A DNA stretch of 61,418 nucleotides from Bacteroidales bacterium (GTDB lineage Bacteria > Bacteroidota > Bacteroidia > Bacteroidales > JAAUTT01): positions 1 through 61,418 of the forward strand of contig JANYAP010000019.1 of NCBI GenBank assembly GCA_025361285.1. The letters are read 5' to 3'. The translations under genes were made by a program, and so were the position numbers. This document shows, piece after piece, positions 30,527 to 35,946 of this stretch (position 1 is the first letter of the stretch; each line of letters begins with the position of its first letter). The notes beneath the pieces are model-generated. The model saw only the letters and a list, made by a program, of their open reading frames with translations. It did not search any database and was not told the origin of the DNA.

Positions 30527-33500
30527 ATGCTGCGACTTTTTTTTGGCCTTTTACTAATTGGATTACAATTAAACTGCACCGTTACAGGTCAGATTAGTTT
30601 TCCTGAAGCACGTCTTTTTACCGTAAAGGATGGACTGTCTCAGTCGAAAATTAATGCGATACTGCAGGATACAAGAGGTTTTCTATGGGTTGGCACTCAG
30701 GACGGTTTGAATAGGTACGATGGATATGACTTTGTGAATTATAAGCACGAACCGTTTAATACCAACTCGTTGTCGAACAGTTATATAAATGCAATAAGCG
30801 AAGATAAAAACGGTGTTTTGTGGATAGCAACCAATAAAGGGTTTAATAGTTTTGATGTTCGTAATGGTTTATTTAAGAGTTACTTAAACAATCCTATAAA
30901 AAACAACACATTATCGGACAATGTTGTACTAAACGTGTTTGTTGACTCGAAAGGGTTAATATGGGTAAAAACGCTAAAGTCGCTCGATTTATTTGACCCA
31001 AAGACTCAATCGTTTGTAAGATACGCCCATTACCACGATGTTTTTCATTTCGTTCAAGGCAATGTTCCATTCCCGATATGCGAGGATAAAAAAGGAAGGT
31101 TATGGGTTGGAACTAAGGACGGACTTTTTAATTTCGGTAGGGAGTTAGCACTTTTTAACCGCTATATTTCGTTAGATTACAATGTAAAGAGTTTAAGTTC
31201 CAACGAAGTGCGTGCGGCATCGGTTGACAAAAATGGAATTATTTGGATTGGCACAGCTAATGGCCTGAATTCGTTTGATGTTGAAAAGAATGAATTTCGG
31301 AGATATTATCACGACCCTAGTTCGAAGCAACTTGTTAACGTTAATAAAATTAATGCTTTATATCACGATAAGTTAGGGCAGTTATGGGTTGGTACCACGC
31401 AAGGGTTATATAGTTTCGATAAAAAAACCGAAAGCTTTCAATTAGCATCATCGAAAAATGTTGATGTCTTTAAAATGCCCATTTTTTCCATTATTGAGGA
31501 TAATTCGGGGGTTTTTTGGGTAGGAACACTGAAGGGATTAATTAAAATTAGTGTTCGAAAACCAAAGGTAAAGGTTTATCGATCAAATGAAAACGCACTT
31601 TACAATTTCTCCTCCGACGATATTGGCGCAATATATCCTGACGGAAACGAAATTGTAATGCTTGGAACCTTGGGTAAGGGCTTAAATATATTCAATATTA
31701 AGACGTTACAAAATAAAGTCGTCTATTTTGAACGGAAAGGCGTTGAAAACGATAATAGTATTCACGTTATTTTTAAAATTTCTCCCGAAAAATTCTTGAT
31801 TGGCACTAATAATGGCATAACAGTGTATAATCCGATAAGGGACGACTATCATAATCTTTGCGCTGAAGGCATTTCGGGTTGCGATGATTTATCGCAGAAT
31901 AGAGTTAATGCCATATTGAAGGACAAAAATGGTAAATATTGGATTGGCACAGCCCATGGCTTATTTAAATTTGATGCGGAAAGGAAAGTCTTGGTTTCGT
32001 TTTTTAACAACCCCAGAATAAAAAAATCGATATGCAATAATACCATTTACAGTTTGAAGGCCGATAATCTTGGCAATATTTGGATAGGTACCGAAAATGG
32101 GCTCGATTATCTAAATATTGCTAATGAACAATTTACACATTTCGAAACCGATAGCAAAGGAAAGCCTTTACTTAGCAGTTCAACCGTTTACTGTTTAAAT
32201 TTCGATTCGAAGAATATGCTATGGTTAGGCACAGCCTCGGGTTTGAATAGATTAAATACGGTTGATAAAACGGTAAAAATGATTACCGAAAGCGATGGAT
32301 TGTCGAATAATTTGATTTACACTATTGAATTTGATAAGGCTGATAATGTTTGGGTTAGTACAAATAGTGGTATAAATTTAGTAAATACCAAAACGTTCGC
32401 AATTCGATCGTTCGATGTTTCGGATGGTTTACAGGATTATGAATTTAATTTTAATTCGGCCGCTCATAACGAAAAGGGAGAGCTGTTGTTTGGAGGTGTT
32501 TCGGGATTTAATGTTTTTTGGCCCGATTCGTTGACTGACAATAAGATAGTTCCGCCAGTAGTGCTTACTTCTATCGAAATTATTACCGAGTTCGGGAAAC
32601 TGCAAACGCTAAACCCCTTTTTGGAGAAAATAGTTATCCCATACAGAACTAACGTTTTTACGGTTAATTTTTCGGCTCTCGATTATAAACTACCAGCAAA
32701 AAATGCTTATGCATACAAGTTTTATTCCGATAATGAGAGCGACTGGATTAATATTGGAACCAAACATTCCGCAACATTCTCGAACCTTAAACCCGGCAAT
32801 TACACTTTAAAAATTAAGGGTTCGAATAACGACTTGCTCTGGAACGAAAATGGCGTTTCTATCATTATAAGCGTAGAGTCGCCTATTTGGCTTAAACCGC
32901 AAGCTTTTTATGTGTATATATTTTTGCTAATCATTTTCGTTCTGCTAGTTTATCGTTATCGTATTTTTAACTTACGCCAAACAAATAGAATTTTAAAAGA
33001 AAAGGAAGTTGCTTCCATCGAAATTGAGCGGCAGAAAGAACTGTTAGCTATTAAGAATAAGAACATTACCGACAGTATTAATTACGCTAAGCGAATTCAG
33101 GAAGCGTTGATGCCATCTGCTAAATTTTTCCGTAAAATTCTTCCCGATTCCTTTATTTTGCATCAACCTAAGGATATTGTTAGCGGCGATTTTTTCTGGA
33201 TTAGTGAAAGGGGCAAAAAAATATATGTTGCCGCCGTAGATTGCACTGGCCATGGTGTTCCTGGTGCTTTTATGTCGATAATTGGTTTTGAATTGTTTCG
33301 CAAAATAACGCACAACCAATATATCGACGATCCGTCGCATATACTTAACATATTAAATAGAGAGTTCGAGGAAATTTTTAAAGACGTTGATAGTGTTGCC
33401 TTGAAGGACGGAATGGATATAGCTTTTTGCGTAATTGATAAGGAGTCGAAAGTTTTGGAGTTTTCTGGAGCCGTAAACCCTATTTATCTGATACGAGAGA

Positions 33501-33838
33501 ATAACATAACAGAAATTAGAGGTGCACGTTTTTCGGTGGGGCTCGACGATATTGACGAGGAGGTGCAATCGTTTGAAAATAAGCAGATTGTGCTTCAGGA
33601 CGACGATGTAATTTACTTGTTTTCCGATGGTTATGCCGATCAGTTTGGCGGTCCTGAGGGTAAGAAGTTTAAATATAGGCGTTTCAGGCATTTATTGCTC
33701 ACAATACATCAGTACCCAATGGAGGAACAACAGCGACTACTGCTCGAACGCATTAATAGGTGGAAGGACGGTTTTGAGCAAGTTGATGATATACTTGTTA
33801 TTGGCTTCCGCCCCAATTTTAATAAGTTAGTTTTTTAA
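30527..33838 (+). CDS. Membrane sensor: beta-propeller and Y_Y_Y periplasmic domains, TM helix, SpoIIE/PP2C phosphatase
   Basis: Repeated D-x-x-G-x-L-W-(V/I)-G-T blades; PKDIVSGDF, DCTGHGVPGA, DGMD, SDG and DD motifs. Confidence 0.9.
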   Translation: MLRLFFGLLLIGLQLNCTVTGQISFPEARLFTVKDGLSQSKINAILQDTRGFLWVGTQDGLNRYDGYDFVNYKHEPFNTNSLSNSYINAISEDKNGVLWIATNKGFNSFDVRNGLFKSYLNNPIKNNTLSDNVVLNVFVDSKGLIWVKTLKSLDLFDPKTQSFVRYAHYHDVFHFVQGNVPFPICEDKKGRLWVGTKDGLFNFGRELALFNRYISLDYNVKSLSSNEVRAASVDKNGIIWIGTANGLNSFDVEKNEFRRYYHDPSSKQLVNVNKINALYHDKLGQLWVGTTQGLYSFDKKTESFQLASSKNVDVFKMPIFSIIEDNSGVFWVGTLKGLIKISVRKPKVKVYRSNENALYNFSSDDIGAIYPDGNEIVMLGTLGKGLNIFNIKTLQNKVVYFERKGVENDNSIHVIFKISPEKFLIGTNNGITVYNPIRDDYHNLCAEGISGCDDLSQNRVNAILKDKNGKYWIGTAHGLFKFDAERKVLVSFFNNPRIKKSICNNTIYSLKADNLGNIWIGTENGLDYLNIANEQFTHFETDSKGKPLLSSSTVYCLNFDSKNMLWLGTASGLNRLNTVDKTVKMITESDGLSNNLIYTIEFDKADNVWVSTNSGINLVNTKTFAIRSFDVSDGLQDYEFNFNSAAHNEKGELLFGGVSGFNVFWPDSLTDNKIVPPVVLTSIEIITEFGKLQTLNPFLEKIVIPYRTNVFTVNFSALDYKLPAKNAYAYKFYSDNESDWINIGTKHSATFSNLKPGNYTLKIKGSNNDLLWNENGVSIIISVESPIWLKPQAFYVYIFLLIIFVLLVYRYRIFNLRQTNRILKEKEVASIEIERQKELLAIKNKNITDSINYAKRIQEALMPSAKFFRKILPDSFILHQPKDIVSGDFFWISERGKKIYVAAVDCTGHGVPGAFMSIIGFELFRKITHNQYIDDPSHILNILNREFEEIFKDVDSVALKDGMDIAFCVIDKESKVLEFSGAVNPIYLIRENNITEIRGARFSVGLDDIDEEVQSFENKQIVLQDDDVIYLFSDGYADQFGGPEGKKFKYRRFRHLLLTIHQYPMEEQQRLLLERINRWKDGFEQVDDILVIGFRPNFNKLVF

Positions 33839-33850
33839 GGGATTATGTAA

Positions 33851-33870
33851 GCAAAAAATGATATTTTTGA
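33851..33870 (+). promoter_or_regulatory. Putative -7 promoter box (TATTTTTG, 33862-33869) for the cys leader
   Basis: Matches TAnnTTTG; the 20-mer is 19/20 identical to the GH92 promoter region at 59190-59209. No clear -33 box. Confidence 0.45.
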
Positions 33871-33920
33871 ACTAAATAATCTGAAGTTTGTTACAATAAT
33901 TATAATTATCCTTTAACAAC

Positions 33921-33989
33921 ATGGCATATAGCATTGTATACAATAGTTTTTTTGAATTAGCAACCACAATAAAACGATGTTGTTGGTAA
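33921..33989 (+). CDS. Putative cysteine-sensing leader peptide MAYSIVYNSFFELATTIKRCCW (22 aa)
   Basis: ATG in an A-rich context (TTAACAAC-ATG); tandem TGT TGT codons just before the stop; lies upstream of cysE-cysK. Confidence 0.65.
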   Translation: MAYSIVYNSFFELATTIKRCCW

Positions 33990-34147
33990 TTACAATAGTT
34001 CGGTAAACTTTCAACATGGATTTTTTAACTATTTGATTTGGTGCAATTTGGAGTTTTTGTGGTTTGGCGGCAAAAAATATGTTATAGTTACCAAACACCA
34101 AGACCCATAAAAAAGTTTACCGAAGTATGGTAATTAGGTTTCGTTTT
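33987..34147 (+). promoter_or_regulatory. Attenuator-like long stem (25-bp inverted repeat) with a T-rich tail
   Basis: 33987-34011 pairs with 34112-34136 (23/25), followed by GGTTTCGTTTT. Confidence 0.65.
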
Positions 34148-34182
34148 AATTCTTTCATAAATTTTATCAGAAATTATTGTAT

Positions 34183-35022
34183 ATGACCACTTTAAAAGCA
34201 TTCCCCAAAAAAATACTTTCGATGAACCAAACCTATTGCAGGGAAGTTCCATCGCTTACAAAGACCAACCACTTCGTCAACGATTTCATCAACTTTTTGT
34301 TTCCAATACGATCCGACAAAAATGTTAGTTTATTGCAGATAGAGGCAAAATGGGAAGATCTTCAACATCAGTTTGTTGAACTGATAACACCATTACGACC
34401 GATGTTAGATAAGCCATTAGAGGAAATTTCCCGAGATTTTTTCGTGTTAATACCTTCCATACACGAAAAGATGATTAAGGATGCCGAAGCGTTTTTAACG
34501 TTCGACCCCGCAGCAAAATGCCCCGAAGAGGTAATACTTTGCTATCCTGGGTATTACGCAATATCGATTTATCGCTTGGCGCATGTACTTTATAAGATGA
34601 AGGTTGATATTCTTCCGCGAATTATATCGGAATACGCTCATACTAAAACAGGTATCGACATCCACCCTGGGGCTACTATTGGAAATCGTTTCTTTATCGA
34701 CCATGGAACAGGCATTGTTATTGGCGAATCGGCAATTATTGGCGACAACGTTAAAATATATCAGGGTGTTACACTCGGTGCACTTTATGTTGGTAAGAAC
34801 CTTGCAAACCAAAAACGACACCCAACTATTGAGGATAACGTAATTATTTATTCTGGAACTACTATTCTTGGTGGCGAAACAATTATTGGACGCGATACGG
34901 TAATTGGTGGAAATGTGTGGCTTACCGAAAGTGTACCTCCGTTTTCGGTAGTGTATCACAAACCTTCGGTGGTAATAAGGGACTCGAAAAAATTTGTAGA
35001 ACCAGTAAATTTTGTAATATAA
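34183..35022 (+). CDS. cysE: Serine O-acetyltransferase
   Basis: DPAA, YPG, TGIDIHPGATIG, FIDHGTG, KRHPT. Confidence 0.95.
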   Translation: MTTLKAFPKKILSMNQTYCREVPSLTKTNHFVNDFINFLFPIRSDKNVSLLQIEAKWEDLQHQFVELITPLRPMLDKPLEEISRDFFVLIPSIHEKMIKDAEAFLTFDPAAKCPEEVILCYPGYYAISIYRLAHVLYKMKVDILPRIISEYAHTKTGIDIHPGATIGNRFFIDHGTGIVIGESAIIGDNVKIYQGVTLGALYVGKNLANQKRHPTIEDNVIIYSGTTILGGETIIGRDTVIGGNVWLTESVPPFSVVYHKPSVVIRDSKKFVEPVNFVI

Positions 35023-35034
35023 ATACCTTTAAAT

Positions 35035-35946
35035 ATGAAGATTAAATCGATATTAGAAACTATAGGCAATACGCCTCATTTAAAAATAAATAAGTTATAT
35101 TCCTCAGATTATGAGGTTTGGGTAAAATTAGAGCGTTTTAATCCTGGGGGAAGTATTAAGGATAGGATTGCATTGTCGATGGTTGAAGATGCCGAGAACA
35201 GAGGTATTTTAAAGCCCAATTCGGTTATTATTGAGCCAACTTCGGGCAATACGGGTATTGGTTTAGCTTTAGTTTCAGCGTTAAAGGGTTACAAGCTTAT
35301 ACTTGTAATGCCCGAATCGTTTAGCGTTGAACGCCGCAAACTTATGGCTGCTTATGGTGCTTCGTTCGAGTTAACCCCTCGCGAACAAGGCATGAGTGGC
35401 GCAATAGAAAAGGCCGCTGAGTTAGTTCATTCAATTCCAAACGCTTGGATGCCGTCGCAGTTCGACAATGAAGCTAATATTGCCATACATAAAAAAGTTA
35501 CAGCTCAGGAAATAATAAACGATTTCCCCGAAGGATTAGATTATTTAATTACTGGCGTTGGCACAGGTGGCCACATTACTGGAGTAGGAGAGGAGCTAAA
35601 AAAGACATTTCCAAAACTTAAGGTGTATGCTGTTGAGCCCGAGGTGTCGCCGTTTATTTCGAAGGGTAAATATGCGCCGCATCCTATTCAAGGCATTGGG
35701 CCTAACTTTTTACCTAAAAATCTTCATATCGAAGTTCTCGACGGAGTAATTCAAGTTACTAAGGACGAAGCATACAAATATGCTCAGGACGCAGCTAAGC
35801 TTGAAGGCTTGTTTGGTGGTGTTTCTACTGGAGCTTCGCTTGCCGCAGTTGCAAAAATGCTTTCCAAATTCCCAAAAGGGTCGCGAATACTTACCTTTAA
35901 CTACGATACTGGCGAACGATATTTATCTGTTGAGGGGTTGTTTTAA
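35035..35946 (+). CDS. cysK: Cysteine synthase A
   Basis: [31 protein letters not shown]. Confidence 0.97.

Follow-up and report, generated by a model that had tools for sequence, protein, structure and literature searches.

A probable cysteine-sensing leader peptide upstream of cysE-cysK in a Bacteroidales genome, separated from cysE by a miniature transposable element

Upstream of cysE and cysK, which encode serine O-acetyltransferase and cysteine synthase A, a Bacteroidales bacterium (assembly GCA_025361285.1) carries a short upstream open reading frame (uORF) that ends in tandem cysteine codons. We analyzed this locus (33839-35946) within a 61,418-nt stretch of contig JANYAP010000019.1, hereafter the window, with all coordinates given on the forward strand. 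Judging from its sequence and its recurrence in related bacteria, the uORF at 33921-33989 is probably a cysteine-sensing leader peptide of the cysE-cysK operon, which in the window is separated from cysE by a miniature inverted-repeat transposable element (MITE). The original prediction for this region had proposed a cysteine-sensing leader attenuator built from this uORF and from a 25-bp inverted repeat that starts at the uORF stop codon. The Cys uORF withstood comparison with the genus and with other Bacteroidota, whereas the repeat turned out to belong to a MITE with 29 copies in the genome, which removes it as the attenuator stem. The features of the locus are as follows.

33862-33869, + strand: -7-like box TATTTTTG, an exact TAnnTTTG located 51 nt 5' of the uORF ATG; putative promoter element
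33921-33989, + strand: putative leader ORF (the uORF) of 22 codons, ATG at 33921, TAA at 33987-33989, tail Arg-Cys-Cys-Trp-stop
33978-33983, + strand: tandem Cys codons TGT TGT, candidate sensor codons, preceded by CGA (Arg) and followed by TGG (Trp) and the stop
33987-33992, no strand: left target-site duplication TAATTA, which includes the uORF stop TAA
33993-34130, + strand: 138-bp MITE with 19-bp terminal inverted repeats (arms 33993-34011 and 34112-34130, 17/19 complementary)
34131-34136, no strand: right target-site duplication TAATTA, a 6-mer identical to the left copy
34137-34182, + strand: the 46 nt left over from the original T-rich leader, between the right TAATTA and the cysE ATG
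34183-35022, + strand: cysE, serine O-acetyltransferase, 279 aa (NF041874)
35035-35946, + strand: cysK, cysteine synthase A, 303 aa (TIGR01139), beginning 12 nt past cysE

The uORF translates as MAYSIVYNSFFELATTIKRCCW followed by the stop, and its sole Cys codons are the two TGT codons one codon before that stop, exactly at the positions predicted for them. The box TATTTTTG is the single exact + strand match to TAnnTTTG, which we take to be the Bacteroidota -7 promoter consensus, in the intergenic region 33839-34182 (the upstream gene ends at 33838); its position before the uORF, too, agrees with the original prediction. Across the whole window the motif is not enriched, with 86 matches versus 86.6 expected.

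To follow the uORF through its genus, which is the sole genus of its family in the genome collection, we searched with the CysE protein and recovered a single ortholog from each of 11 of the 12 remaining genomes, giving 12 loci with the window. The 450 nt 5' of each cysE were scanned for uORFs with ATG starts only, one locus being counted from an internal ATG. The original prediction had named the lack of a conserved Cys-containing uORF in orthologous leaders as one outcome that would refute it; we found instead a Cys-ending uORF of 17-26 codons in 10 of the 12 loci (window included), with uORF ends 43-83 nt before cysE in the genus leaders. Measured from stop codon to cysE ATG, the distance in nine relatives is 58-89 nt. 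The 10 leaders of the genus fall into three subgroups. The peptide tails read RCCW, RCC (twice), RCLCCC, RCLCCH, RCFCCC, RCQSC and CCCSRC (three times), and the congeners' uORFs hold 2-4 Cys within their last 6-11 codons. Tandem-Cys uORFs occurred in 8/12 loci on the forward strand versus 1/12 on the reverse complement, and in a mean of 0.49 loci (maximum 3) over 200 shuffles. The gene 5' of the leader varies across the genus, being pgk in several members and a Reg_prop/SpoIIE gene in the window, which indicates that the uORF travels with cysE.

The details of this conservation are informative. A 13-nt block around the Cys codons, AACGATGTTGTTG, is identical between the window and the loci closest to it, L010 and L011, and the promoter-like block TTTTTGAACTAAA and the ATG region are likewise conserved in these two relatives. 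The body of the uORF is poorly conserved: L010 and L011 differ from each other at 5/21 residues, and the window's peptide differs from them nearly throughout. A diverged body combined with an identical promoter-like block, ATG region and Cys block is the pattern that would be expected of a leader peptide. Across all 10 genus uORFs the codon pair CGA-TGT (Arg-Cys; 33975-33980 in the window) is invariant, while the rest of the peptide is variable; slow decoding of the Arg codon could serve to sharpen a stall, or the pair could be a nucleotide-level signal. An exact TAnnTTTG lies 27-59 nt 5' of the uORF ATG in 6 of the 10 genus leaders, and in all 10 the stretch from uORF to cysE is free of such a box. 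No decay is visible in the window itself, where uORF, Cys codons and promoter-like box have remained intact.

Cys-rich ends are rare in the window's genome, where only 63 of 8630 small intergenic ORFs show them. Two other striking Cys-rich uORFs were set aside, since they precede RhuM-like and transposase-like genes, and none of those checked was sulfur-related. Separately, an identical 10-codon ORF ending in Cys-Cys-Glu occurs at 8 places in the genome (e.g. C79:9922-9954, C113:9036-9068 and C184:18992-19024, given as contig and positions) and presumably belongs to another dispersed repeat unrelated to cysE.

The inverted repeat proved to be of a different nature. A repeat finder confirmed its predicted arms of 25 nt (33987-34011 / 34112-34136; 23/25 or 92% complementary, 100-nt interval), and these arms are the ends of a MITE, i.e., its 19-bp terminal repeats, plus the 6-bp TAATTA target-site duplication. 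TAATTA being palindromic, the 19-bp terminal repeats were lengthened to an apparent 25-bp stem. The MITE inserted into the very TAATTA that holds the uORF stop codon, and owing to the target-site duplication the stop was kept and the ORF left intact, while the distance from the uORF stop to the cysE ATG grew from 49 nt before the insertion to 193 nt now. That the repeat stands far above chance is explained by its consisting of both ends of a mobile element present in many copies.

Indeed, a BLAST search of the genome with 33851-34176 returned 27 matches on both strands, all within approximately 33977-34136 of the query, and an nhmmer profile built from the aligned copies gave 41 matches that resolve into 29 distinct genomic loci, 13 of them full-length (131-169 bp). 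The copies have common 19-bp ends starting CAATAGTTCGGTAAAC, and short direct repeats rich in A and T border them. Of the 13 full-length copies, 7 have an exact 5-6-bp target-site duplication, the window's TAATTA among them; one further copy has a 5-bp repeat shifted by 1 nt, and two have 4 bp (one exact, one shifted by 1 nt). All 29 copies lie outside ORFs of at least 110 aa, in both orientations, with flanking genes arranged in tandem (14), divergently (7) or convergently (3), or with the copy near a contig end (5); within this genome the MITE is often located 5' of genes. The family measures approximately 145 bp, as in the copies C7:14892-15038, C35:26261-26407 and C69:6900-7045.

The full MITE was not found in four of the five congeners searched, and the fifth (G003) gave end matches of 33-35 nt only. 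The orthologous leaders of L010 and L011 lack the MITE and can be aligned straight through its insertion point, and the 25-bp repeat is absent from all orthologous leaders. Since it consists of MITE ends and is missing from those leaders, the inverted repeat is not an ancestral regulatory stem, and the mechanism that the original prediction had hung on it falls away. A 15-nt motif from the MITE ends matched 123 times with at most 2 mismatches, and several of these matches lie approximately 220-260 nt from contig ends, pointing to a larger element that shares these ends and was not assembled. An autonomous partner of the MITE was not found in this fragmented assembly of 202 contigs, which may have left it unassembled; one 1.9-kb pair of ends that we examined had no transposase domain.

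The long stem after the uORF stop is present in both the predicted minimum free energy and centroid structures (z = -1.8 and -1.9). On its 3' side stand a GG and then interrupted T's, with no U-run, and the stem encloses 100 nt, for which reasons it is no canonical terminator; a terminator scan called no + strand terminator in the window, this stem included. The T-rich tract that had been noted after the repeat (GGTTTCGTTTTAATTC...) is indeed T-rich; a U-run abutting the stem is not there, and the orthologous leaders of the genus that lack the repeat are as T-rich as the window's leader (48-61% T).

Three small frames overlap the insertion. Two lie on the minus strand, opposite the uORF and the MITE's left half, namely a 62-aa TTG-initiated ORF (33913-34101) and a 34-codon ATG ORF that ends in Cys-Cys (33913-34017); both are most likely spurious. 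On the + strand, an ATG in the right end of the MITE opens a 19-codon frame (34127-34186) whose TGA overlaps the cysE ATG (ATGA). Its start was made by the insertion and its 3' part is original leader; it is not conserved in L010/L011.

Beyond the genus, we examined a wider set of at least 80 loci obtained by a CysE alignment search of species-representative Bacteroidota genomes, to which no genus member belonged. The cysE start could be placed in 77 of these, and 7 loci from other families brought the set to 84. With poly-Cys uORFs defined as having at least 3 Cys within 6 codons, and ATG starts only, such a uORF preceded this type of cysE in 16/84 loci on the forward strand, among the matches listed. 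For the same loci the reverse complement gave 2/84 and 200 shuffles averaged 0.6 (maximum 4), and an independent metagenome sample yielded 11/69. Where non-coding sequence extends for at least 100 nt upstream, 13 of 33 loci have such a uORF; of the 51 others, in which cysE mostly lies close behind another gene, 3 do. The uORFs vary considerably in architecture, from 12 codons with four consecutive Cys codons (L061, L066) through 18-31 codons with five (L057, L060, L084) to 53 codons with six plus two (L088 and L094, Ancylomarina). A hand count of 24 runs of at least 3 TGY codons showed the Cys frame to be covered from ATG to stop in 21, versus 3 and 7 for the other two frames. At L055 a run of six TGY codons, approximately 174 nt before cysE, has no in-frame ATG and might belong to a Cys leader that starts at another codon.

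What follows the Cys codons in these genomes resembles a textbook arrangement. In 12 of the 15 non-genus poly-Cys leaders examined, a terminator hairpin (-10.8 to -20.5 kcal/mol) with a U-run ends 13-81 nt before cysE. Leaders with such a terminator include those of Danxiaibacter flavus (L066), Foetidibacter luteolus (L074) and Ancylomarina sp. (L094). In 6 of these 12, the 5' arm of the terminator can pair with a stretch lying between it and the Cys run, at a duplex energy that beats at least 97% of shuffles, making that stretch a candidate antiterminator. On sequence grounds, the layout of the terminator-bearing leaders is that of a classical attenuator, for cysteine. Apart from a tRNA, no Rfam family reached its gathering score in the loci of 20 relatives. 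Among the metagenome relatives one locus stood at 78% CysE identity (with 81 nt upstream) and the rest at no more than 65% (47-65%, measured on the best segment, which spans most of the protein); a 71% match at L185 is limited to a C-terminal fragment, residues 111-279.

One further candidate was rejected. A Cys-containing 'ORF' approximately 230-350 nt 5' of cysE in five Chitinophagaceae-like loci is the off-frame 3' end of a conserved upstream gene and neither a leader nor an RNA element. In these loci (L062, L078, L079, L080 and L104) the gene immediately before cysE encodes a conserved protein; its C-terminal region can be aligned across 10 loci and resembles the end of a sulfate-adenylyltransferase subunit. 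As cysE would thus be operon-internal in Chitinophagaceae-like genomes, no leader is expected directly upstream of it.

Given these observations, we consider it quite likely that ribosome stalling at the Cys codons acts as the sensor. Transcription from the promoter-like box would run through the uORF, and when Cys-tRNA(Cys) is scarce the ribosome translating the uORF would stall on the tandem Cys codons with which the frame nearly ends. The persisting stalled ribosome would raise cysE-cysK expression, while with plentiful cysteine the ribosome would terminate and depart, and expression would be attenuated. This device appears, in other orders of Bacteroidota, to be joined to an intrinsic terminator and a candidate antiterminator. 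For the window's genus we rank three possible outputs: tna-like Rho termination that is blocked by the stalled ribosome, a weak U-tract terminator, and a translational effect. Rho dependence thus comes first within the stalling reading, although only as a tentative choice. The Cys codons adjoin the uORF stop, as a Rho model requires, and a Rho gene is encoded in the window's genome (629 bits, cut-off 509). The C-over-G skew after the uORF stop is inconsistent across the genus, being clear in only 5 of the 10 leaders (0.27 to 0.55), with a genome background of 0.07 +/- 0.28. For a weak U-tract terminator, the leaders are T-rich but their hairpins are negligible. A translational output of the mycobacterial type, in which the Cys tract sequesters the cysE start, was tried and dropped, because the duplex energies were no better than those of shuffled sequences in all 10 genus leaders. 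The -7-like box 51 nt 5' of the ATG in the window would also argue for a 5' untranslated region, whereas mycobacterial small ORFs are leaderless.

Several observations weigh against a cysteine-sensing leader in this genus. With the MITE or without it, none of the 10 leaders has a hairpin of terminator type, followed by a U-run, that is more stable than -1.8 kcal/mol, and when the Cys-codon region was paired with the cysE start, even the best duplex was equalled by 30 of 300 shuffles. The C/G skew is -0.11, -0.17 and -0.33 in the window, L010 and L011, although a Rho loading site is expected to have C over G. The window's uORF holds two Cys codons only, and the invariant CGATGT could be a nucleotide-level signal instead of coding sequence. 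The members of the genus share descent, so that the 10 of 12 loci are not 10 independent events. Two congeners have no uORF, G012 with cysE 17 nt past pgk and G005 with a 150-nt spacer, and neither do 20 of the 33 other Bacteroidota loci with a free upstream region; the leader device is therefore dispensable. Finally, insertion of the MITE may have broken the link between leader and cysE here.

This last point is the core of an alternative that accepts the leader-peptide origin and concerns present-day function only, namely that the ancestral attenuator has lost its regulation here: the MITE would have shifted the stall site by 144 nt, leaving cysE-cysK constitutive or otherwise controlled. 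The present spacing of 193 nt, compared with 58-89 nt in nine relatives, the stable hairpin now predicted at the uORF stop and the habit of this MITE of sitting 5' of genes all fit such a loss. Against it, the ORF, Cys codons and promoter-like box show no decay, nor is there an exact -7 box 3' of the uORF from which an independent transcript could start. We regard lost coupling as unlikely, though it deserves to be kept in mind. The role originally given to the 25-bp repeat, a terminator or anti-terminator stem whose formation is decided by the position of the ribosome on the Cys codons, is very improbable. Its predicted folding, the overlap of its base with the uORF stop and the T-rich sequence behind it would suit that role; against it, the repeat is made of the ends of a 29-copy MITE with their target duplication, occurs in no orthologous leader, and encloses 100 nt in a structure that closes on GG and interrupted T's and escaped the terminator scan. 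Any role that it has would be a recent accident of insertion.

The remaining alternatives deny the uORF its function as a sensor. The conserved element could act at the nucleotide level, with the sequence around CGATGT and the TGT repeats serving, for instance, as an operator or as the target of an RNA-binding protein, in which case the frame would be incidental and untranslated. The invariance of CGATGT in the genus and the identity of the 13-nt block in the three closest genomes are what such a signal would leave behind, but the preference for an open Cys frame in the TGY runs (21 of 24, versus 3 and 7) is that of coding sequence. Moreover, the sequence flanking the Cys codons varies by subgroup, yet the ATG, the length of 17-26 codons, the Cys cluster and the stop are retained, and in other orders the Cys run lies at the distance from the terminator that is expected of leader peptides; we deem a nucleotide signal improbable. 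That the uORF makes a functional Cys-rich micropeptide, metal- or redox-active or the precursor of a modified peptide, with no sensor function, is scarcely credible to us. The conserved Cys-rich C-terminus would agree with it, while the body of the peptide is unconserved even between L010 and L011, the position is always directly 5' of cysE, and no modification or export genes were seen beside the uORF in the window. Set against these alternatives, a cysteine-sensing leader peptide in front of cysE-cysK is the reading that we prefer.

The annotation of the operon itself is straightforward. CysK scored 387 bits on NCBIfam TIGR01139 (cut-off 351) and CysE 160.6 bits on the EpsC-type serine O-acetyltransferase model NF041874 (cut-off 150), whereas CysE remained below the cut-off of TIGR01172 (169.5 versus 210.65 bits). 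The true start of cysE is the ATG at 34183 and not the TTG at 34177, the protein likewise having 279 aa in all relatives. No relevant Rfam match was obtained in 33500-34500 at E-values of up to 10, the only hits being chance matches to miRNA and snoRNA families.

Taken more broadly, the data raise the prospect that Bacteroidota hold a widespread and apparently undescribed family of Cys-sensing leaders before cysE, with two output designs, of which the window would be a natural spacer-insertion mutant; we consider this wider proposal to be evenly balanced between true and false. The first design would combine terminator and antiterminator and be found in Chitinophagales-, Saprospirales- and Flavobacterium-like genomes. 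The second, that of the Bacteroidales genus studied here, would be terminator-less with Cys codons adjoining the stop, and its output would be either Rho-dependent or of a kind undescribed for initiation without Shine-Dalgarno pairing, on which, to our knowledge, Bacteroidota do not rely.

Cysteine was long thought to be missing from the amino acids with ribosome-mediated attenuation. A Bacteroidota Cys leader, if real, would extend the oldest form of RNA-level control to a phylum with differing promoters and translation initiation, and would offer many natural sequence variants for testing. The terminator-less version of the genus and its MITE-interrupted copy bear on the readout of a ribosome that stalls at the very end of its leader ORF; in that case, comparing the window with its MITE-free congeners could reveal the role of distance and structure after the stop. 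There is also a practical caution, in that long inverted repeats beside regulatory ORFs need a whole-genome check before they are read as RNA switches.

Our literature searches brought up no description of a Cys leader in Bacteroidota, with subscription journals and supplements (e.g. that of PMC9723704, which possibly lists one) outside their scope. The Bacteroid-trp motif RF01692 is tabulated for Bacteroidetes (PMC2864571), and leader-peptide attenuation is remarked upon generally for Flavobacterium psychrophilum and Bacteroides thetaiotaomicron (PMC9723704, PMC7366714). Cys-rich leader ORFs without terminators have been predicted 5' of Actinobacteria cys operons, with a tna-like Rho dependence proposed (PMC1262725), and mycobacterial polycysteine leaderless small ORFs act translationally; the 2020 study that showed this states that to its authors' knowledge no ribosome-mediated attenuation for cysteine had been described before (bioRxiv 10.1101/834739). 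For Rhodobacterales cysS, a further article describes the uORFC-8-2 motif, a tandem-Cys uORF with a terminator stem and U-run, for which ribosome-mediated attenuation was proposed (PMC8632094).

The mobile element of the window is built like other bacterial MITEs, such as Correia of Neisseria, RUP and ERIC, being approximately 140 bp long with terminal inverted repeats, a short AT-rich duplication, tens of intergenic copies and no coding capacity. It differs from them in its confinement to this genome relative to the five congeners searched, and in that no autonomous partner was found. With TnaC, the tna leader of E. coli, the uORF would share a stall at the end of the leader ORF and a ribosome that covers the sequence after the stop, and Rho is encoded here too. 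TnaC, however, senses free tryptophan through the nascent peptide and not through tRNA charging, and the window and its closest relatives show no consistent C-rich, G-poor tract after the stop. The mycobacterial polycysteine ORFs likewise have Cys codons clustered at the 3' end, precede cysteine or sulfur genes and have no intrinsic terminator. They differ in being leaderless and in controlling translation by pairing of the Cys tract with the Shine-Dalgarno region of the following gene, as opposed to the promoter-like box upstream of the window's uORF and a pairing of Cys codons and cysE start at the level of shuffled sequences. The uORFC-8-2 motif also has two tandem Cys codons in its uORF, but it stems from another phylum, precedes a tRNA synthetase gene (cysS) and not cysE-cysK, and carries its Cys codons within the first stem. 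From the classical attenuators (trpL, hisL, thrL, pheL and the Bacteroid-trp motif) the candidate leader differs in that cysteine would be sensed and in that the window's genus has no detectable terminator/antiterminator pair; it resembles them in its short 5'-leader ORF with tandem codons for the end product, and in most of the Bacteroidota Cys leaders outside the genus (12/15) this ORF is followed, as in those attenuators, by a GC hairpin and a U-run.

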